This document shows positions 44,629 to 53,731 of a DNA stretch of 64,000 nucleotides, one piece after another. The DNA is from Campylobacterota bacterium (GTDB lineage Bacteria > Campylobacterota > Campylobacteria > Campylobacterales > Sulfurimonadaceae). Below the pieces are notes generated by a model that made no database searches, was not told where the DNA came from, and was given only the letters and a program-made list of their open reading frames with translations. Both the position numbers and the translations under genes were made by a program. The stretch is taken from the NCBI GenBank assembly GCA_030837195.1, contig JAUPKZ010000001.1, positions 5,104-69,103 on the forward strand. The letters run 5' to 3'. Every line of letters begins with the position of its first letter. Positions within the stretch are counted from its first letter, which is position 1.

Positions 44629-45417
44629 TCAGTATGTATGAATCTCTTGTGGAAATTCTCTTGTTTTTACTTCATCACTATACTTTTTAACCGCACTTTT
44701 AACCAAGGAAGCACCGTCTAAATATTTTTTTACAAATTTTGGCGTAAACTCCTCAAAAAAACCAAGCATATCACTCCATACCAAAACTTGCCCATCTACT
44801 CCGTTTCCTGCGCCTATGCCTATGACCGGAATCAAAACACTTTTTGCAACCTCTGCAGCCACATCGGCTTTTACTCCCTCTATAACTATACAAAAAGCGC
44901 CTGCTTTCTCAATTGCTTTTGCATCTTTTATAAGAGATGCCCTTCCCTCATCGCTTCTGCCTTTGACCTTGTAGCCGCCTTCTGAACGAACTGCTTGAGG
45001 CAAAAGCCCTATATGCCCGCATACCGCAATACCGTTTGAGCAAAGATGTGCAACAATGTCGGCTTTGTCTTCACCGCCTTCTATTTTGATGGCATCGGCA
45101 GGTGTTTCTTGAAAAACTTTGATAGCATTTTTTAGTGCCTCTTTTTTGTTAACATAGGTGCCAAAAGGCATATCACATATCAAAAAAGTCTCTTTTGCTC
45201 CCATAGCAACTGCATTTGTATGGTATATCATCTGTTCTAGCGTTGCACTTAGAGTATCACTTTTACCTGCAAAACTCATATTTAGGCTATCACCGACAAG
45301 CAACACATCTGCTTCTTCTTGAAACAACCTTGCAAAAAGCGCGTCATAAGCAGTAATCATCACCAGAGGCGTGACACCCTTACTTTTTTTTATAGAATTG
45401 ATTGTCATTTTTTTCAT
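44629..45417 (-). CDS. panB: 3-methyl-2-oxobutanoate hydroxymethyltransferase
   Basis: Start moved to the MKKMTINS methionine. TAYD, VGDSL, KIEGG, GHIGL.PQ motifs. Confidence 0.92.
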
Positions 45418-45551
45418 ACTTGTAAAACTCTTATATTTGATAATAGTAATTTTAACTAAAATTTTGCAATAACGCATAAAGTTGATTAAAGAATATCAAA
45501 GTTTATAATTATGGTAGTATAATTCGAGGAACTAAAACGAAGGATAGGTAG

Positions 45552-46418
45552 GTGCATAAAAAGGGAACTCATTTTCTATTAACCACTATTTTCCCTCTTG
45601 CTTTTGTTGGTTGTACCCATACATATGTGCCTACCCAAAAAAATGATACTGAGTCGCTTAATGCACAGTTTCTAACTCTTGAGCGCTCCATAAAAGATTT
45701 AAAAAATGAAGTAAAAACACAAGAAGAAGATTTGCTGGATGCTTTTACTCTAAAACAAAACAGCAATACTCACACTATAAAAACACAGATTCAAACAACG
45801 CAAATTCAACTTGAAGATAAAATCACCAAAGAGCTTCAAGAAGCAATCAAATCTCTTAAAGCGCAAAATGCAGCTACCATAATGCCGCAACAACAAGAGC
45901 GTTTGCAGGAAAAAGAAAAAGAAAAAGAAAAAGAAAAAGTAGTCGTCTATAAAACACTAAAAGAGCCGTGTCTTTTAGCAGGCAAGTTTATAGTAGGCGA
46001 GTTTGAAGATGTCAGAATTGACCCGCCTGCTCTAATAGCAGCCGCTAGAATCGACTCAGGCGCCGAAACCTCATCAATTGATGCAAGAAATATCTTTGAG
46101 TTTCAAAGAGACGGCGCGAACTGGGTTAGATTTGACTTTGTAGATAGAAAAAACAATACGATTCACGCTATAGAGACAAAAATTGCAAGATATGCGACGG
46201 TCTTTCAATCTTCACAAAAAGATAAAAGCGACAAAAGAATCGTTATAAAGCTAAAAATAGATATCGGTAACCATTCAGACTTAGCAGAGTTTACTCTTGC
46301 AAACAGGGCTTCTATGAACTTTGCCGTTCTAATAGGAAGAAATATTCTCAAAGATATAGCAGTTATCGATATAAGCGGAAAAAATTTGGCGCCTCTGGCG
46401 GATACTAAAACAAAATGA
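45552..46418 (+). CDS. Lipoprotein with coiled coil and C-terminal retropepsin-like domain ('ATP-dependent zinc protease'/DUF785 family)
   Basis: GTG start after an AGGA-containing RBS. Lipobox LAFVGC. (EK)5 linker. C-terminal domain GEFEDVRI......ARIDSGAETSSIDA...F...G..WVRF... with a D-S-G-A aspartic-protease-type motif. Confidence 0.65.
   Translation: MHKKGTHFLLTTIFPLAFVGCTHTYVPTQKNDTESLNAQFLTLERSIKDLKNEVKTQEEDLLDAFTLKQNSNTHTIKTQIQTTQIQLEDKITKELQEAIKSLKAQNAATIMPQQQERLQEKEKEKEKEKVVVYKTLKEPCLLAGKFIVGEFEDVRIDPPALIAAARIDSGAETSSIDARNIFEFQRDGANWVRFDFVDRKNNTIHAIETKIARYATVFQSSQKDKSDKRIVIKLKIDIGNHSDLAEFTLANRASMNFAVLIGRNILKDIAVIDISGKNLAPLADTKTK
45909..45938 (+). repeat. (GAAAAA)5 hexanucleotide microsatellite inside a CDS
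   Basis: Five perfect GAAAAA units encoding EKEKEKEKEK. Confidence 0.9.
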
Positions 46419-47929
46419 TTAAGTTTAGTTTTTATTTTATCATACTTCTTCACATCGGGCTTGGTATATTTATAGCATACCAAAGACATCATCAAACTCA
46501 GATACCGTTTTTACCGGGTGAAGAGACAAAGGTTTGGCTTATTGAGGCAAAAGTTGAATTTTTGGCAAATCCAAACACCCCGACTATGATATCCTTAAGT
46601 GTGCCGAGTGAAGTTCCAAACTATAAAATATTTTTTGAGCAAAGCTCTTCTGCAGGATACGGCTTTAACAAAGTTGAAGAAAACGGACAAAAAAAAGCAC
46701 AATGGAGCATTAGAGAAGCTACTTCAAAGCAGACTCTTTATTATAAAGTTCAAGCTGCACGAGGAGACTCACAACAACCACCGACACAGCAGATCAACAC
46801 AGAGGATAAAAAACTCTCTTCTCTTATGTGGACAAAAGCCGAAGAACTTGCGATAGAAGATATACTAAGCGAGGCAAAAAGCCGCTCAAGCAATGATGAA
46901 ACACTAACAATAGAGCTTATCAAACTCTTTGCAAGCAAATCTATGGGGGAGAGCTCTTCACTTCTTTTATACAATAAAGATCGAGTGGAAGTTATAAATG
47001 CAATCCTAAATCAAGCAGGAGTTCAAAGCAGAATTGCTATGGGGCTAAAGCTAGAAGATGCCAGAAGAAACCAAAGCTTAATATCGATGATTGAAATATA
47101 TACTAACGGTAAATGGGTGCTTTTTGACACACTTAGCGCAGAGAAAAATATAGAAGAAAACTTCTTTTTATGGCATAGAGGAAACTCTCTTCTTGATATC
47201 AGCGGAGCAGAAGACGCAAAAGTCACTTTTTCTATGATAGAGCAAAATATTTCAAATATGGAGCTTGCAAAAGTTTACTATGACAAATCAATTTTTAGAC
47301 TATTTAGCATACACTCTTTGCCAATAGAAGAACAAGGCATATTTAAGATGCTGCTTTTATTACCGCTTGGCGCTCTTATTACGGTATTTTTACGACTGAT
47401 CGTAGGCATTAAAACATCCGGAACATTTATGCCTGTTCTCATAGCAATGGCATTTTTACAAACTTCTCTTCTTCCTGGCATTACGGCTTTTATTGTTATC
47501 GTAGCCATGGGTCTTGTCATTAGAAACTATCTATCATATCTTAACCTTCTATTGGTTGCAAGAATAGCCACCACAATAGTCGTTGTTATTTTTATGATGG
47601 TTACTGCAAGCCTCATCGGGTATAATCTGGGGTTTAACACGGGAATGACCGTTGCGGCTTTTCCTATCATCATTTTAGCATGGACAATTGAGAGGATGTC
47701 TATACTCTGGGAAGAAGAAGGAGCAAAAGAGGTATTTATTCAAGGAGGAGGAAGCCTTTTTGTTGCTACGCTTGCTTATCTGGCAATGCAAAACTCTTTT
47801 GTCGAGCATCTAACCTTTAACTTTCCGGAGCTTAACTTTATACTTCTCTCATTTATGCTCTTTCTTGGCAGATATACCGGCTATAGGCTCTTAGAGCTCT
47901 ATAGATTTAGAGAGTTTAAAGGTCAATAA
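46415..47929 (+). CDS. Membrane protein: N-terminal TM + extracytoplasmic (inactive transglutaminase-like) domain + 7 C-terminal TM helices
   Basis: 504 aa. ATGA overlap with the upstream gene. One TM at 5-25, a roughly 280-aa soluble region, then 7 hydrophobic helices from about residue 310. The architecture matches the family described as 'inactive transglutaminase fused to 7TM'. Confidence 0.55.
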   Translation: MIKFSFYFIILLHIGLGIFIAYQRHHQTQIPFLPGEETKVWLIEAKVEFLANPNTPTMISLSVPSEVPNYKIFFEQSSSAGYGFNKVEENGQKKAQWSIREATSKQTLYYKVQAARGDSQQPPTQQINTEDKKLSSLMWTKAEELAIEDILSEAKSRSSNDETLTIELIKLFASKSMGESSSLLLYNKDRVEVINAILNQAGVQSRIAMGLKLEDARRNQSLISMIEIYTNGKWVLFDTLSAEKNIEENFFLWHRGNSLLDISGAEDAKVTFSMIEQNISNMELAKVYYDKSIFRLFSIHSLPIEEQGIFKMLLLLPLGALITVFLRLIVGIKTSGTFMPVLIAMAFLQTSLLPGITAFIVIVAMGLVIRNYLSYLNLLLVARIATTIVVVIFMMVTASLIGYNLGFNTGMTVAAFPIIILAWTIERMSILWEEEGAKEVFIQGGGSLFVATLAYLAMQNSFVEHLTFNFPELNFILLSFMLFLGRYTGYRLLELYRFREFKGQ

Positions 47930-48876
47930 TGGCTTTTCTTGCAACCTTTAACACACTCAAAAAAAACGGTATTTTGGGTATGAATGAGAGAAATGTAAAC
48001 TATATATCGAAGTATAATGACAGAAGACTCTATCCTTTGGTTGACGACAAACTACAAACAAAACTCTTAGCTCAAAAAATGGGTATCAGCACACCAAATC
48101 TTTTTTTTACTATTGCCCATCAACACGATGTAAAAGAGCTCTCAAAAAAGTTAGAACCTCTAGATGCTTTTGTCATTAAGCCCTCCAGAGGTTCAGGCGG
48201 AAAAGGGATTTTAGTCATAAAATCTAAAACAAAAGAGGGTTTTGTAAAAACAAACGATGAAATTATCACGATTGAAACAATTATGCGACATGTTACAAAT
48301 ATCCTATCAGGACTTTATTCACTAAGCAGCACTCCGGATGTCGCTATATTTGAAGATTTGGTTATTGCAAATTCTGTTTTAAAAAAATACTCATATCAAG
48401 GCGTTCCTGATATTAGAATTATTGTTTTTAGGGGGTACCCTATTATGGCTATGCTAAGGCTCTCTACAAAATCATCCGACGGAAAAGCAAACCTTCATCA
48501 AGGTGCAGTCGGTGTAGGAATAGATATAAAAAGTGCTAAAGCAATTTCTGCCGTACAGGAACAAACAAGAGTTTATGAGCACCCTGATACCAAAAATAGC
48601 CTCGATAAAATAGAATTAGAAAATTGGATAGAACTTTTAGAACTAAGCGCTAAGTGCTACGATATGACAAAATTAGGCTATTTGGGCGTAGATATCGTAC
48701 TAGATGAAAAACGCGGACCTATGCTTCTTGAGCTCAATGCAAGACCGGGCTTATCTATACAAGTAGCCAATTCTCAAGGGTTGCTCCCAAGACTTCAAGA
48801 GATAGAAAAAATAGAAGAGATAGCGCCAAATGCCAAAGAAAGAGTCTCTTTTGTGCTTGAGAAAAACTGGGTTTAA
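47929..48876 (+). CDS. RimK-related ATP-grasp ligase (alpha-L-glutamate ligase-like protein)
   Basis: 315 aa. TAATG overlap with the upstream gene. ATP-grasp motifs FVIKPSRGSGGKGILVI, DIRIIVFRG, NLHQGA.G, GVDIVLDEKRGPMLLELNARPGL. Confidence 0.75.
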   Translation: MAFLATFNTLKKNGILGMNERNVNYISKYNDRRLYPLVDDKLQTKLLAQKMGISTPNLFFTIAHQHDVKELSKKLEPLDAFVIKPSRGSGGKGILVIKSKTKEGFVKTNDEIITIETIMRHVTNILSGLYSLSSTPDVAIFEDLVIANSVLKKYSYQGVPDIRIIVFRGYPIMAMLRLSTKSSDGKANLHQGAVGVGIDIKSAKAISAVQEQTRVYEHPDTKNSLDKIELENWIELLELSAKCYDMTKLGYLGVDIVLDEKRGPMLLELNARPGLSIQVANSQGLLPRLQEIEKIEEIAPNAKERVSFVLEKNWV

Positions 48877-48908
48877 CCATTTGGCAGTTTTTTTAAACGC
48901 CTTATTTA

Positions 48909-48937
48909 TTGAACGGATTGCAAAAAAGTGCTATAAT
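48909..48937 (+). promoter_or_regulatory. Near-consensus promoter (TTGAAC-17 nt-TGcTATAAT) for the HPt-trpA unit
   Basis: TTGAAC at 48909-48914, 17-nt spacer ending in TGC, TATAAT at 48932-48937, followed by an AGGAGA RBS. Confidence 0.5.
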
Positions 48938-48962
48938 CTCCATTATATAGGAGATATTTTGG

Positions 48963-49367
48963 ATGGGTGCTAAAAGTGTCTTAGATTCTAACTTTGATTA
49001 TGAAATAGTCGATGAATTTTTAGACCACTACTCTATAATGATAGACTGTATGGAGAGTATGATTTTAGACCTAAGAAAACCGGACATGTTTGAGCAAAGC
49101 ATAAATGAACTCTTTAGGGTTTTTCACAACATAAAGTCTTCATCTGCTTTTTTGCAGTTGACACCTATGTCAAAATTAGCAGCTTTTGTCGAGAGCGTTT
49201 TAGATGAAATAAGAGCAAATAAGAGCAGCGTCAACGAAGAGACCATAAACTGGCTTCTTGATGTTAGCGATATGTTTGCCATATGGAGAGATGATCTAAG
49301 GCTTGACAATGAACTCACACGCATAAAATACTCTCTGCTTAAATTACCTGATTTGGAGTCAAATTGA
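48963..49367 (+). CDS. Stand-alone HPt (histidine phosphotransfer) domain protein
   Basis: 134 aa. LFRVFHNIKSSSAFLQL....LA.FVES.LD.IR matches the CheA-P1/HPt pattern (H..KG.a..f). Confidence 0.5.
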   Translation: MGAKSVLDSNFDYEIVDEFLDHYSIMIDCMESMILDLRKPDMFEQSINELFRVFHNIKSSSAFLQLTPMSKLAAFVESVLDEIRANKSSVNEETINWLLDVSDMFAIWRDDLRLDNELTRIKYSLLKLPDLESN

Positions 49368-50104
49368 AAAAACTGGTTGCATATATAACTTCAGGATATC
49401 CTGAAAAATCTTTTAGCATTGATTTGGCACTTGCCCTTAAAGAGAGCGGGGTCGATACACTTGAGCTCGGAGTTCCGTTTTCAGATCCGGTTGCGGATGG
49501 TCCGCTTATAGAAAAAGCTAACCATAAAGCTCTGGAGCTTGGTTTTAAATTTAAAGATCTCTTGGAGATTTCAAAAGTTATTGCTCCTCAAGTAGATACA
49601 CTATGGATGGGTTATTTCAACAGTTTTTATCAACATAAGTTTGATAAAACACTTCAGAAAGCAAAAGAGCTTGGCGTTAATGGATTTATCATACCGGATC
49701 TTCCGTATGAAGAGTCATTGATATATAACGACATTTTTAACTCCAAAGAACTTGCAAACATCTCTTTTGTTGCACCGACTGATACAGAACAGAGGATTAA
49801 AACTATTGTAAAAGATTCTAGAAAATTTATCTACCTTGTAGCATACACCGGAATTACAGGCTCAGGAACAGCAGAAAATTTACAACCTATCATCACATCT
49901 ATCAAAAAATATACGCAAACACCTGTTTTTGTAGGATTTGGCGTCAATAAAAAAACTGCAAAAGAGAAAGTAAAGGGTGCTGATGGTGTTATCGTGGGAA
50001 GTGCTTTTGTCGAAATACTTTTGAACGAGAATTTAAGTTATAATGAAAAGATCATCAATTGTAGCGAACTTGCAAGATTTTTAAAAAGTGAGATAAACAG
50101 CTAA
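49364..50104 (+). CDS. trpA: Tryptophan synthase alpha chain
   Basis: 246 aa. TTG start overlapping the upstream stop (TTGA). LELGVPFSDPVADGP, GFG motif, GVIVGSA. Confidence 0.9.
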   Translation: MKKLVAYITSGYPEKSFSIDLALALKESGVDTLELGVPFSDPVADGPLIEKANHKALELGFKFKDLLEISKVIAPQVDTLWMGYFNSFYQHKFDKTLQKAKELGVNGFIIPDLPYEESLIYNDIFNSKELANISFVAPTDTEQRIKTIVKDSRKFIYLVAYTGITGSGTAENLQPIITSIKKYTQTPVFVGFGVNKKTAKEKVKGADGVIVGSAFVEILLNENLSYNEKIINCSELARFLKSEINS

Positions 50105-50266: not shown

Positions 50267-50491
50267 TTAGTAAGAAATATCTAGCTTTCCTACAAGTTCT
50301 TCTATTTTTTGTTCTTGCGTAAAAAGCTCATGGTTTTTTCTTATGTATGCTTGAAGAAGAATTTTCAAGTCGTTATTCCCTTCAACATTAAAATCTTTTC
50401 TTAACTGTTTCTCTAAAAAAGGAGCAAAACTATCTTCTACATCAACATCAAAACGGCGTCCGCCGATGTTTAAGCCAAGTTTTTTACTCAT
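50267..50491 (-). CDS. Small protein, possibly ZapA-like cell-division factor
   Basis: 74 aa. LNIGGRRFDVDVED...L pattern reminiscent of the ZapA N-terminal domain, plus a short helix. Weak assignment. Confidence 0.35.
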   Translation of the reverse strand: MSKKLGLNIGGRRFDVDVEDSFAPFLEKQLRKDFNVEGNNDLKILLQAYIRKNHELFTQEQKIEELVGKLDISY

Positions 50492-50494
50492 ACG

Positions 50495-50722
50495 CTAAAC
50501 CATTATGCTTTCGATCTTTTGAACTATCTCTTCTATCTCTAAATCTTTAAGACTGTTTTGTTCAATCAACTTTTCTATTTCTTGGTTTTTTATCTCATTT
50601 TCTGCTTTTTGCTTTACTACTTCGAGTCTTAGAGCCTCGTTTTCACCTTTTAGTTGGCTATACTTCTCTATCATTGCGGATATTTTGTCATTTAATTTGA
50701 TTAAATTTGTCTGATTTTGCAT
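50495..50722 (-). CDS. Small coiled-coil protein (ZapB-like)
   Basis: 75 aa, essentially one heptad-repeat helix (E/K/L/I/Q rich). Lies 3 nt upstream of the previous ORF. Confidence 0.35.
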   Translation of the reverse strand: MQNQTNLIKLNDKISAMIEKYSQLKGENEALRLEVVKQKAENEIKNQEIEKLIEQNSLKDLEIEEIVQKIESIMV

Positions 50723-50814: not shown

Positions 50815-51066
50815 TTAATCGTAATCTTCGGAAAACTTGCTTCTGTGTCGAAATTTTTGAACATGCCCGTAGTCGTCATCTTCATCATCGTCATACTCAT
50901 CGCCAAACTCATTTTCAAGCAATCTCTCATAACCCATTTTTTCGAGTTCATCATCAATTTGCTCTTTGTCCAAGCCATTTTTTTTACTAAAATCTAAGAT
51001 GTATTCAACATCTTTTCTCATTACACCGTTTAGCTCTAAAACAAATTCCAAATCTTTAAATGTCAT
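50815..51066 (-). CDS. Small acidic hypothetical protein
   Basis: ATG at 51066 has an AAGG RBS 5 nt upstream (the track ORF starts at 51096). The C-terminus carries a DEYDDDEDDDY acidic run. Confidence 0.4.
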   Translation of the reverse strand: MTFKDLEFVLELNGVMRKDVEYILDFSKKNGLDKEQIDDELEKMGYERLLENEFGDEYDDDEDDDYGHVQKFRHRSKFSEDYD

Positions 51067-51246
51067 ATTTGCCTTCTTTACAAACATACTCCACAAACTT
51101 ATGGAACATTTATGTTATTTCCTTATTCTTAAATTTTAATTTTATAGCAAAATTATACTCTCAAATAATTTTTTTTTCGCTAAAAAAAATCTTAAAAAAA
51201 AGCATATTTTTCTTTATCAAATTTGTAAAACTTTCTCTGCATTCTA

Positions 51247-51271: not shown

Positions 51272-52690
51272 ATGTGTCTTATGTCTGAAAAAACAATTAT
51301 CGGTGCTAGAGAAATCATTTCAATTGCAGATTTAAACTTATACGACCTTGATGTAAAGATTGACACGGGTGCCGATTCAAATGCGCTTCATTGTGATGAT
51401 ATTTTTGTAGATGAAAACAATATAGTCCATTTCAAACTTCTTGATGAAGTTCATCCTGCATACCACGGTAAAGAGATGCATATGCCGCTTTATGAGATGA
51501 AAAAAATCAAAAGCTCAAACGGTGAGGTACAGCAAAGACCCTCCATAAAAGCAAAAGTTGAATTTTTCGGCAAAAGATATACAACGGTTATATCACTAAC
51601 GGATAGATCCGATATGAAATATCCTATGCTTCTTGGAAAAAAATTTCTTAAAAAAAATTTCTTAGTTGATATTTCACAAGAATATCTCTCAAAATCTCAT
51701 AAAAAATCTGCTGCCGTAGAACAGCCAAAAGATGCTACACAACAAAAAACAACACCGATAAGAGTCTATGTACTATCAAGAAACAAAGAGCTATATTCGA
51801 CAAAAAGGCTAGTTCAGGCAGCTGAACAAAGAGGTTGGGAAGTAAAGGTCATTGATTATTTAAAATGCAGCATCGAGATTATGAAAGATGAGTTAAAGGT
51901 AAACTATCTAGGCAAAGAGCTGCCAAAACCGGATGCTATAATCCCAAGAATAGGCGCTAGCAGAACATTTTACGGAACTGCTATGGTACGCCATTTTGAA
52001 ATGATGGATGTTTTTACAACAACCGGAAGTTTGGCTATTAAACGCAGCAGAGATAAGCTAAGAAGCCTTCAAATACTCTCAAAAAACGGTATCGATTTGC
52101 CAAAAACCGTATTTGCTTCTAACAAATCAAGTACAAAAGATGTAATAGCCCTAAGCGGAGGAGCTCCGCTTGTTCTTAAGATTTTAGAAGGAACTCAGGG
52201 GGTCGGCGTTGTTTTAGTTGAGAGCGAAAAAGCAGCAAAATCCGTGCTAGATGCTTTTTACGGCATGGATGTAAATATGCTTGTTCAAGAGTACATAAAA
52301 GAGTCTGGTGGTTCCGACATCAGAGCCTTTATAGTAGGAGGTAAAATTGTCGGAGCAATGAGGCGCCAAGGCATAGAGGGCGACTTTAGGTCAAACCTTC
52401 ATCAAGGCGGTAGAGCTACTGCACATAAACTCACGAAAAAAGAAAAAGAGACTGCCCTTGCCGCTGCCAAAGCTATGGGTCTTAATGTGTGCGGGGTAGA
52501 TATGATCCCATCTGCCAGAGGACCTTTAGTTATGGAAGTAAACTCTTCACCCGGACTTGAAGGTATCGAGAAATCAACAAATATAGATATTGCCTCTAAG
52601 ATTATGGAGTACATAGAAAAAAATGTTACACAAAAAAATAGAGCACTTACAAAAAAATCAAGAATAAAAAAAGATAGCATAGGAGCTTAA
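51272..52690 (+). CDS. rimK: Fusion protein: retropepsin-like (DUF785/'Zn protease') domain + RimK ribosomal protein S6 glutamate ligase
   Basis: 472 aa. N-terminal about 140 aa with IGAREIISI..L......VKIDTGADSNALHC (D-T-G-A). The C-terminal 300 aa is co-linear with RimK (LVLKILEGTQGVGVVLVES, DIRAFIVGG, NLHQGG, CGVDMIPSARGPLVMEVNSSPGLEGIE). Confidence 0.85.
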   Translation: MCLMSEKTIIGAREIISIADLNLYDLDVKIDTGADSNALHCDDIFVDENNIVHFKLLDEVHPAYHGKEMHMPLYEMKKIKSSNGEVQQRPSIKAKVEFFGKRYTTVISLTDRSDMKYPMLLGKKFLKKNFLVDISQEYLSKSHKKSAAVEQPKDATQQKTTPIRVYVLSRNKELYSTKRLVQAAEQRGWEVKVIDYLKCSIEIMKDELKVNYLGKELPKPDAIIPRIGASRTFYGTAMVRHFEMMDVFTTTGSLAIKRSRDKLRSLQILSKNGIDLPKTVFASNKSSTKDVIALSGGAPLVLKILEGTQGVGVVLVESEKAAKSVLDAFYGMDVNMLVQEYIKESGGSDIRAFIVGGKIVGAMRRQGIEGDFRSNLHQGGRATAHKLTKKEKETALAAAKAMGLNVCGVDMIPSARGPLVMEVNSSPGLEGIEKSTNIDIASKIMEYIEKNVTQKNRALTKKSRIKKDSIGA

Positions 52691-52699
52691 AATATAAAT

Positions 52700-53731
52700 A
52701 TGGAACTATTTTATGATGTATTAAAGCAGCTTATTCGCGTTCCTAGCGTGGTGGGAGCCGAGCATCCTTTTTTTTTATTTATAAAAAGAGAACTTGAAGA
52801 AGCGGGAATTACGGTAGAGTACTACGATGGGGTACTAGTCGCAAAAGGAGATTCTCCTGAGGATGGGTATATATCTGCTCATGCCGATAGACACGGGCTC
52901 ATTTGTACCGGACACAATGAGTTTCAGTATGCAGCTTTCATAGCAAAAAATAAAGCAGACCTAATGGGAAACTCAAACTCCGAGCAGCTTTTAAATAATT
53001 TTACAGCGCGATTTGTAGATGAAAAAGTACAAGCTTATGACCCTTGGTCTGGAAGCTATATAGGGCTTGGAACCATTAAAGATGCTTTTTTATGCCAAAG
53101 AAGGAACAATATTATATTTAAAGTTGAAGGTTTTGACTATCTCTTTCCCGGAACTCCTATTGCATTTATGGATAAACTAGATTTTCAAGAGGAACTTATT
53201 TCTGCACAACTTGACAATGTTTTGAGCGTTGCAATCATCATCTATCTATATCTCATAGGGTACAAAGGTACGGCTTTTTTTACGGCATCCGAAGAAGCGG
53301 GAAAGAGTTGGAGATTTTTACTTGAGTATTTCAGAAGGTTCGATATCGCCACAAATGAACTCTTGGTCTTAGATACAAGCCCCTACCCTACACTTGAAGA
53401 TATAAAAAATATAGACATTGTTTTAAGAAACAGAGATTCAAATGCCGTTTTTAAATCACCGCTTAAAGATAGAATCAAAAAAATAGCAAAAAAAGAGAAG
53501 ATCAAATACGACTTTAAAGATAAATATCTAAGAAATAAAATCAAAAAAAATGGCGCAAAAGGATCCATAGGCACGACGGAGTTAGGAAGGCTTATCCATG
53601 CAACGAAAGGACAACTTCAAGGTACTACGCTGCAAATTCCTACAATTGGGTATCATACGGTAAATGAAACAACGACAAAAAGCTCTGTTGAGAGCATGAT
53701 TAATGTCTTAAAAAAAGTATATATAAAATAA
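52700..53731 (+). CDS. M42-family (glutamyl-aminopeptidase-like) metallopeptidase
   Basis: 343 aa. Putative metal and catalytic positions are all present in order: SAHADRHG, QLDN, SEEAG, LVLDTS, GYHTVNE. Starts 9 nt after rimK. Confidence 0.6.
   Translation: MELFYDVLKQLIRVPSVVGAEHPFFLFIKRELEEAGITVEYYDGVLVAKGDSPEDGYISAHADRHGLICTGHNEFQYAAFIAKNKADLMGNSNSEQLLNNFTARFVDEKVQAYDPWSGSYIGLGTIKDAFLCQRRNNIIFKVEGFDYLFPGTPIAFMDKLDFQEELISAQLDNVLSVAIIIYLYLIGYKGTAFFTASEEAGKSWRFLLEYFRRFDIATNELLVLDTSPYPTLEDIKNIDIVLRNRDSNAVFKSPLKDRIKKIAKKEKIKYDFKDKYLRNKIKKNGAKGSIGTTELGRLIHATKGQLQGTTLQIPTIGYHTVNETTTKSSVESMINVLKKVYIK

Follow-up and report, generated by a model that had tools for sequence, protein, structure and literature searches.

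An rloABC operon with a long-form, lipobox-bearing retropepsin-like protease in a Campylobacterota genome

A 64,000-nucleotide stretch of the genome of an uncultured Campylobacterota bacterium (GenBank assembly GCA_030837195.1, contig JAUPKZ010000001.1, positions 5,104 to 69,103; hereafter the window) contains three overlapping open reading frames (ORFs) whose predicted products are an aspartic peptidase with a signal peptide, a polytopic membrane protein and an ATP-grasp ligase. The original prediction, made from the sequence alone, read this trio as a membrane-associated machine that tails peptides with amino acids and processes them. The locus raises the question of whether such an arrangement represents a new system or a copy of a known one, and of what its three proteins might make together. 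Profile searches of Pfam and NCBIfam upheld the predicted domain calls (retropepsin-like protein, inactive transglutaminase fused to a seven-transmembrane (7TM) module, and glutamate-ligase-like protein), all three ORFs matching curated profiles at E-values from 5e-32 to 2e-124. Gene order, domain content, compartment signals and active-site residues all identify the trio as an rloABC operon, and the Campylobacterota locus is a further copy of an already named system with unsolved chemistry.

The rloABC system (retropepsin-like osmotic stress tolerance) was named in Pseudomonas aeruginosa (Lormand et al., mBio 2025, PMC12239564), in which the operon comprises PA1768–PA1766, with PA14_41710 being rloB and PA14_41730 rloC. 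RloA (PA1768) is a protein of 179 amino acids (aa), with a mature form of residues 23–179. The RloA proteases carry signal peptides, adopt retropepsin-type dimers with a basic substrate channel (crystal structures 9G58 and 9G59) and in vitro cut runs of at least eight Glu residues; their substrates include RpsF (ribosomal protein S6) bearing poly-Glu and reporter proteins with an internal 8E or 10E run (PMC12239564). Residues K46, R92, R114 and R137 contact poly-Glu, and R114/R137 substitution leads to loss of complementation in vivo. A triple rloA mutant does not grow in salt-free medium, i.e. the loss is lethal at low osmolarity, and also has biofilm, beta-lactam and cell-shape defects, while deletion of rloB or rloC rescues this mutant (PMC12239564). 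In this species the system thus bears on biofilm formation and cell shape as well as on survival of osmotic stress and tolerance of beta-lactams. The original statement that no substrate, product or phenotype had been demonstrated for the domain trio is outdated, as RloA cleavage of poly-Glu and mutant phenotypes are published. The trio is already characterised as regards its genetics and the biochemistry of RloA; that of RloB and RloC was left unsolved by the same study, and no later literature identifying the RloC product was found.

The three window ORFs lie on the forward strand with the overlaps and coordinates originally described (ATGA and TAATG; Table 1). Promoter-like sites precede the first ORF and the gene after rloC (48909–48937), so that the trio looks like a single unit. 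A terminator scan 3' of rloC gave nothing convincing, and a search of positions 45300–49100 against Rfam detected no RNA family. The G+C content of the locus (37 %) is close to that of the window (36 %), and none of the PADLOC models of anti-phage defence matched RloA, RloB or RloC. The compartment signals are a signal peptide and lipobox on RloA, a predicted cytoplasmic tail on RloB and the lack of a transmembrane (TM) segment in RloC. Only two rloABC traits are missing from the window trio, namely scores above the Pseudomonas-tuned model cut-offs and the disulfide pair of RloA.

RloA of the window matched PF05618, currently named 'RimB-like' and previously 'Zn_protease', over aa 147–279 (111 bits, E 5e-32, cut-off 27) and aligned with the RloA crystal structures 9g58 and 9g59. 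Its best NCBIfam matches were RloA3, RloA2, RloA1 and RimB, all of them under narrow cut-offs. In the 9g58 alignment R166, R213, R229 and R252 match K46, R92, R114 and R137 of P. aeruginosa RloA, with the numbering of the 9g58 chain and the full-length protein assumed to differ by a constant offset of +20, and on this alignment the window RloA is predicted to keep the catalytic Asp together with the four basic residues that hold poly-Glu. A cytoplasmic RimB was considered and rejected for this protein, which has a signal peptide and scored 60.7 bits with the RimB model (cut-off 200).

The lipobox LAFVGC, the (EK)5 repeat and the D-S-G-A motif originally listed for this protein were all present. 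The N-terminus reads MHKKGTHFLLTTIFPLAFVG-C21, with a hydrophobic core of 12 residues, and a lipoprotein is a plausible reading of this pattern. A lipobox-like motif after a hydrophobic stretch was seen in at least 65 of 80 related RloAs, and an Asp at position +2 in none of 53 sequences (52 homologues and the window RloA). In Escherichia coli, lipoproteins without Asp at +2 are sorted to the outer membrane, a rule not established in these phyla. The distance from the lipid-bearing Cys to the catalytic Asp was 103–136 aa in 52 of 53 measurable homologues (median 113) and is 147 aa in the window protein, the only cysteines of which are Cys21 in the lipobox and Cys140 before the protease domain. 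The Marinobacter long-form RloAs that were inspected have cysteines in the spacer only. Full-length BLAST coverage with several Marinobacter proteins (33–35 % identity over 94–98 %) indicates that the spacer is homologous across phyla. The spacer of the window RloA includes a run of 84 aa without Pro or Gly. This run makes the coiled coil of the original prediction plausible, as does the obligate dimerisation of the enzyme, but a crude heptad-occupancy test did not establish it (z=2.0 for the window spacer, family median 0.6). Two near-identical metagenome RloAs carry (EK)4 (P0001, 99 % identical) and (EK)2 (P0002, 92 % identical), which indicates that (EK)n is an in-frame slippage polymorphism and that stalk length drifts.

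Long-form RloA with a lipobox is usual in the sampled clade, a set made up of the nearest relatives of RloB in Campylobacterota, Desulfobacterota and many marine Gammaproteobacteria. Lipoproteins, coiled coils and Campylobacterota are not mentioned in PMC12239564, and the lipobox-bearing long form is a widespread, unstudied sub-architecture. It constrains models of the system because the protease would be membrane-tethered and not free.

RloB matched PF14400 (inactive transglutaminase; aa 24–186, 146 bits) and PF14402 (7TM; aa 258–501, 343 bits), and the NCBIfam model 'osmotic stress tolerance membrane protein RloB' aligned with it end to end (aa 8–501 with positions 10–505 of 508, 311 bits). 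The originally described architecture, in which a single N-terminal TM helix is followed by some 280 aa of soluble domain and then by another seven helices (aa 312–488), was recovered both by helix prediction and in an AlphaFold2 model (mean predicted local distance difference test score (pLDDT) of 78). Lys and Arg residues outside the large periplasmic domain are confined to alternate loops and the C-terminal tail, which predicts an N-in, 1+7 TM, C-in topology. Searched with Foldseek against the PDB, the model gave one significant match, 3isr (E 4e-8), restricted to the periplasmic domain; hits touching the TM part had E-values above 0.1 with tiny TM-scores and were discarded as noise. No PDB chain was retrieved with RloB by sequence or profile searching, even at E=10. 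The protein has no cysteine at all, and an alignment of 37 homologues contained no invariant Cys or His; RloB is therefore not an active transglutaminase. A papain-like cysteine peptidase was likewise ruled out by the absence of a catalytic Cys.

The invariant residues of the 37 homologues lie mostly on the predicted cytoplasmic side of RloB. These comprise R327, K333-T-S-G-T-F338, R370-N-Y-L-S-x-L-N-L-L-L, R383, E426-R-M-S, W432-E-E-E-G and a G-x-Y-T-G-Y…R-F tail, while P471-E is a further invariant and the periplasmic domain contributes R206, D215-A-R-R-N-Q220 (including R217, R218 and Q220) and G81-Y-G. This degree of conservation suggests that RloB has an active role in docking, gating or transport and would not be a passive anchor. 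The map of conserved sites also supplies targets for mutagenesis, namely K-T-S-G-T, R-N-Y-L-S, E-R-M-S and W-E-E-E-G on the cytoplasmic side and D-A-R-R-N-Q in the periplasm. The nearly invariant W-E-E-E-G (aa 432–436, positions 47708–47722) stands in a predicted cytoplasmic loop beside E-R-M-S. Such an acidic triplet, opposite a glutamate-ligase-like enzyme, may mark a primer, a docking site or a cation site.

RloC passed the cut-off of TIGR02291, 'alpha-L-glutamate ligase-like protein' (414.5 bits, cut-off 314.2), and its best Pfam model was PF14397 (300 bits). The ATP-grasp and RimK-like motifs of the original prediction were found (VIKPS82, GSGGKG88, DIR161, NLHQG188, GVDIV253 and LELNARPGL267–275). 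The Mg/ATP motifs are intact, as in a catalytically competent ATP-grasp enzyme. The exact RloC sequence is deposited at NCBI as MDQ1263051.1, annotated as hypothetical, from a metagenome-assembled genome (MAG) of a 'Campylobacterota bacterium'; exact-sequence look-ups of the RuvB, PanB and RimBK proteins of the window returned no record, RloC alone being matched.

The window also encodes a RimBK hybrid of 472 aa (51272–52690, forward strand), 2.4 kb downstream of rloC, which is its true Rim system. This protein starts without a signal peptide and consists of a PF05618 domain (aa 9–141, IDTGA at 30) followed by Rimk_N and RimK; it has PF18030 and passes the cut-offs of rimK_fam and PRK10446 (370 bits with the latter, cut-off 331). 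Its RimB part was the only other PF05618 domain in the 64-kb window, in which no further RloA paralogue was found. RloA is 27 % identical to the RimB part and RloC 25 % identical to the RimK part over the ATP-grasp core, with the K84, DIR, NLHQG, GVD and E-x-N motifs in common; relative to RimK, RloC lacks the pre-ATP-grasp N domain (~95 aa) and has two insertions. The trio itself was rejected as a RimB/RimK system, RloC having no PF18030 (Rimk_N) and scoring 53.5 bits with rimK_fam (cut-off 143.4) and 20.9 bits with PRK10446 (cut-off 331). Hybrids of the RimBK type are proteolytically active in Desulfotalea (PMC11957791). Ten nucleotides after RimBK lies an ORF of 343 aa (52700–53731, forward strand), which matched no NCBIfam model and, in Pfam, weakly and solely Peptidase_M42 (glutamyl aminopeptidase; 26.8 bits); it could be an exopeptidase that finishes the breakdown of oligo-Glu.

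To place the trio in a wider context, homologous loci were collected by a pattern scan with one genome per species, and the best 80 of 596 RloB relatives were analysed. At the protein level, more than 5600 clusters homologous to RloB were found. The sources of the 80 loci were Marinobacter, Cellvibrio and other Cellvibrionaceae, Halieaceae, Nitrincola, Chromatiales, Desulfuromonadales, Desulfurivibrio, Desulfobacterales, Sulfurimonas, an Arcobacter MAG, a Campylobacterales MAG and one MAG of Spirochaetota; they represent four phyla (Gammaproteobacteria, Desulfobacterota, Campylobacterota and the single Spirochaetota MAG). The gene-neighbourhood check for co-conservation proposed with the original prediction bore out the trio completely, with rloA directly upstream of rloB on the same strand in all 80 loci and rloC directly downstream of rloB in all 75 loci whose contig continues. 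Of the 80 rloA/rloB junctions, 53 are 4-nt overlaps. At the 75 rloB/rloC junctions, the genes overlap by 4 nt in 31 cases and by 1 nt in 22, and are separated by 1 nt in 15. Tight coupling of the three genes is a family trait, and the trio forms an invariant module well beyond Gammaproteobacteria. No fourth gene was conserved within ±3 kb of the 75 loci. Synteny was limited to the genus or family level, and the flanks of the window locus differ from those of Arcobacter sp. MAG LH_M16 (L001/L003; RloA 42 % and RloB 65 % identical). This indicates that the three genes are the whole conserved module.

Conservation increases from RloA to RloC, with identities of about 50 % for RloA (protease domain only), about 50 % over the full length for RloB, as measured against Gammaproteobacteria, and 54–73 % for RloC. 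No RloB–RloC fusion was present among the best 120 matches of either protein, which is a weak test confined to top matches. In Nitrincola, rloC is directly followed on the opposite strand by a second short RloA-like ORF (Table 1). This suggests a local duplication of the protease, comparable with the three RloA paralogues of Pseudomonas.

Table 1. Coordinates of the rloABC features. Positions refer to the window unless a Nitrincola locus is named
Feature	Position	Strand	Basis or remark
Promoter-like site TTGATT-16-TATAAT	45482–45509	+	Consensus match only; lies in the 74 nt that separate rloA from the divergent panB
Shine–Dalgarno-like AAGGA/TAGG stretch	45541–45550	+	5' of rloA
rloA, long-form retropepsin-like aspartic peptidase, 288 aa, GTG start	45552–46418	+	PF05618; alignment with 9g58/9g59
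Putative lipoprotein-type signal peptide: n-region HKK, h-region FLLTTIFPLAFV, FVG-C21, Thr at +2	45552–45614	+	Sequence pattern only
Spacer/stalk, aa 22–140, polar, K/E/Q/T-rich, ending at Cys140	45615–45971	+	Sequence; ~120 aa
GAAAAA ×5.2, perfect hexanucleotide repeat encoding (EK)5, aa 120–129	45909–45939	+	In the stalk
Protease domain, aa 141–288; catalytic D168 in D-S-G-A, aa 168–171	45972–46415	+	Alignment with 9g58
rloA/rloB junction, ATGA overlap	46415–46418	+	rloB ATG overlaps rloA TGA
rloB, membrane protein, 504 aa	46415–47929	+	PF14400 and PF14402
Periplasmic transglutaminase-like domain, aa 23–300	46481–47314	+	AlphaFold2 model; Foldseek
7TM module, aa 301–504, with basic cytoplasmic C-terminal tail	47315–47926	+	Predicted helices
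rloB/rloC junction, TAATG overlap	47927–47931	+	rloB TAA and rloC ATG share one base
rloC, cytoplasmic ATP-grasp ligase, 315 aa	47929–48876	+	TIGR02291; PF14397
Second RloA-like ORF of Nitrincola	L018 8453–8905; L029 8439–8900; L030 8440–8904	−	After rloC

The favoured explanation of these findings, with a probability of roughly 60 %, is a self-contained three-gene envelope system in which RloB and RloC would make and export an acidic product that RloA trims. The epistasis observed in Pseudomonas implies that RloB and RloC together make something harmful unless RloA is present. The ligation step would be cytoplasmic because it needs ATP, and the protease is extracytoplasmic; RloB, always co-encoded, is the only membrane component. 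RloC would dock on the invariant cytoplasmic face of RloB and polymerise an acidic product, most likely alpha-linked glutamate, which the 7TM module of RloB would move across the inner membrane to its own periplasmic domain. There the dimeric RloA, which in the window version would be lipid-anchored on a spacer of about 120 aa, would cut long acidic runs and so keep the amount or length of the periplasmic polyanion within safe limits. Translational coupling would balance the three proteins, since the product of RloB and RloC would be harmful without RloA. The polymer-making and processing part of the original prediction agrees with the published work (PMC12239564), while peptide tailing is just one of two live options, the other being export of a free polymer. 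A free acidic polymer, which would be a periplasmic polyanion with a possible osmotic role, is tentatively favoured, at somewhat less than even odds, over a protein-attached form, which is held to be improbable. The grounds for this preference are that no client gene is conserved, no poly-Glu envelope protein is encoded in Pseudomonas and the C-terminus of RloB is not Glu-ended. A more far-reaching version, rated as rather unlikely, would make RloBC a new kind of synthesis-coupled exporter that threads poly-alpha-glutamate or a similar acidic peptide into the periplasm; the peptide would act as a fixed polyanion for osmotic and Donnan balance, and the lipid-anchored, stalked RloA dimer as a length or level 'valve' in long-form systems.

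Several points weigh against this explanation. In no organism has a product been assigned to RloC, and the transport role of RloB is inferred. The 7TM module matches no solved structure by fold or sequence, and its stand-alone AlphaFold2 model, with a pLDDT of 49, was not used for a fold search. The specificity of RloC for Glu would be an extrapolation, as its Pfam family is described as 'sugar-transfer associated' and it has no counterpart of the acceptor-binding N domain of RimK. A disulfide-forming Cys pair is reported to be conserved in periplasmic RloA orthologues (PMC12239564) and is missing from the window RloA, the protease domain of which has no Cys. Nor did the window proteins reach the NCBIfam cut-offs for RloA1 (67.9 bits, cut-off 280), RloA2 (69, cut-off 250), RloA3 (84.7, cut-off 210) and RloB (311, cut-off 900). 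These models, of the 'exception' or 'equivalog' type, are set narrowly for close orthologues like those of Pseudomonas, and the low scores indicate distance and not a different family. Finally, all functional data come from Pseudomonas and not from Campylobacterota.

The least improbable competitor, though still an unlikely one, is that RloC adds a poly-Glu tail or branch to an envelope-bound protein, either RloB itself or an exported client, and that RloA removes it in the periplasm, as RimK and RimB do on RpsF. The operon mirrors rimB-rimK, of which the window holds paralogues at 27 and 25 % identity; RloA cuts poly-glutamylated RpsF and the internal 8E/10E runs of reporters (PMC12239564); and RloC gave a weak match to TTL (tubulin-tyrosine ligase; 24.3 bits, cut-off 20.1). 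RloB would offer the nearly invariant W-E-E-E-G loop, but a tail on a cytoplasmic loop would be out of reach of a periplasmic protease, and the C-terminus of RloB is basic (…RFREFKGQ), unlike that of the Glu-ended RpsF. As to exported clients, no protein of the periplasm or extracellular space of P. aeruginosa is encoded with eight or more consecutive Glu, the acidic loop of CprS is left uncut (PMC12239564), and no client gene is conserved beside the trio.

In a second competitor, less likely still, RloC would couple an amino acid to something other than a protein, for example a precursor of peptidoglycan or a polymer of uronic acids; RloB would be the flippase or scaffold, and the poly-Glu activity of RloA would not be physiological. 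The 'sugar-transfer associated ATP-grasp' family PF14397 as the best Pfam model of RloC would fit this, and so would the resemblance of the Pseudomonas phenotypes (cell shape, beta-lactam sensitivity and hypo-osmotic lysis) to wall defects, the induction of Vibrio orthologues within the VxrAB cell-wall damage regulon and the over-production of membrane vesicles after disruption of an rloB-type gene in Shewanella. However, TIGR02291 and the RimK-like motifs favour an acceptor that is an amino acid or a peptide, the trio has no conserved neighbour of the glycosyltransferase or Mur type, and the loss of complementation on R114/R137 substitution concerns two RloA residues that are conserved in the window protein. 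It is very unlikely that RloB is instead a 7TM receptor, with a dead transglutaminase domain that senses an envelope cue and switches RloC, with no export and with RloA acting on RloB or on an unrelated substrate. Dead enzyme domains are often turned into binding or sensing modules, RloB has no Cys, and it is most strongly conserved on its cytoplasmic side, at which a partner would dock; nevertheless, a sensor leaves unexplained that cells without a periplasmic poly-Glu protease die only if they have the cytoplasmic ligase, and the periplasmic domain of RloB has no acidic run for RloA to cut. The three-gene system that makes, exports and trims an acidic product is preferred to all of these. 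The locus alone raises no new question; it is the family as a whole that conceals an enzymatic product, that of RloC, and a 7TM fold yet to be characterised.

Other neighbours of the trio include a stand-alone Hpt protein (CheA-P1-like, 134 aa; PF01627, 35.9 bits) encoded at 48963–49367 on the forward strand behind the promoter-like site that follows rloC. Its stop overlaps by 4 nt with an ORF of 246 aa (49364–50104, forward strand) that was read as trpA from its translation alone. This odd pairing is not conserved at the rlo locus of Arcobacter sp. MAG LH_M16. Between the putative trpA and RimBK are three small ORFs on the reverse strand (50267–50491, 50495–50722 and 50815–51096), none of which could be assigned with confidence; one is ZapB-like (20.9 bits, under the Pfam cut-off) and one is very acidic (…DEYDDDEDDDYGH…).

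The locus was compared with four known systems or structures. The periplasmic domain of RloB shares the fold of 3isr, a transglutaminase-like putative Cys protease of Cytophaga hutchinsonii (TM-score 0.55 on the target), from which it differs in sequence (13 % identity), in having no cysteine and in being fused to a 7TM module. In the PgsBCA/CapBCA system of Bacillus, with PgdS/CapD, a cytoplasm-facing, ATP-dependent amide ligase and membrane proteins likewise put a glutamate polymer outside the membrane, where an extracytoplasmic hydrolase trims it. The proteins are unrelated, however, with a Mur-ligase-type PgsB, no 7TM or transglutaminase component, a gamma linkage and a Gram-positive host, and export of a polymer by the Rlo proteins is only inferred. 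RimB–RimK, which controls poly-glutamylation of RpsF, also pairs a retropepsin-like poly-Glu endopeptidase with an ATP-grasp alpha-L-glutamate ligase of opposing activity and common ancestry, but is entirely cytoplasmic, has no membrane partner and acts on RpsF. The closest likeness is to rloABC of P. aeruginosa, with which the window trio shares the three domain families and their order, encoded on one strand with tight junctions, an RloA with a signal peptide, a D-T/S-G-A site and four basic poly-Glu contacts, an RloB composed of an inactive transglutaminase and a 7TM module, a cytoplasmic ATP-grasp RloC (identity with RimK of about 24 % there and 25 % here) and a separate RimB/RimK system in the same genome. 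The window version differs in its Campylobacterota host, with 36 % G+C, and in its RloA of 288 aa in place of 179 aa, which has a lipobox and a spacer of about 120 aa with (EK)n and is without the disulfide pair.

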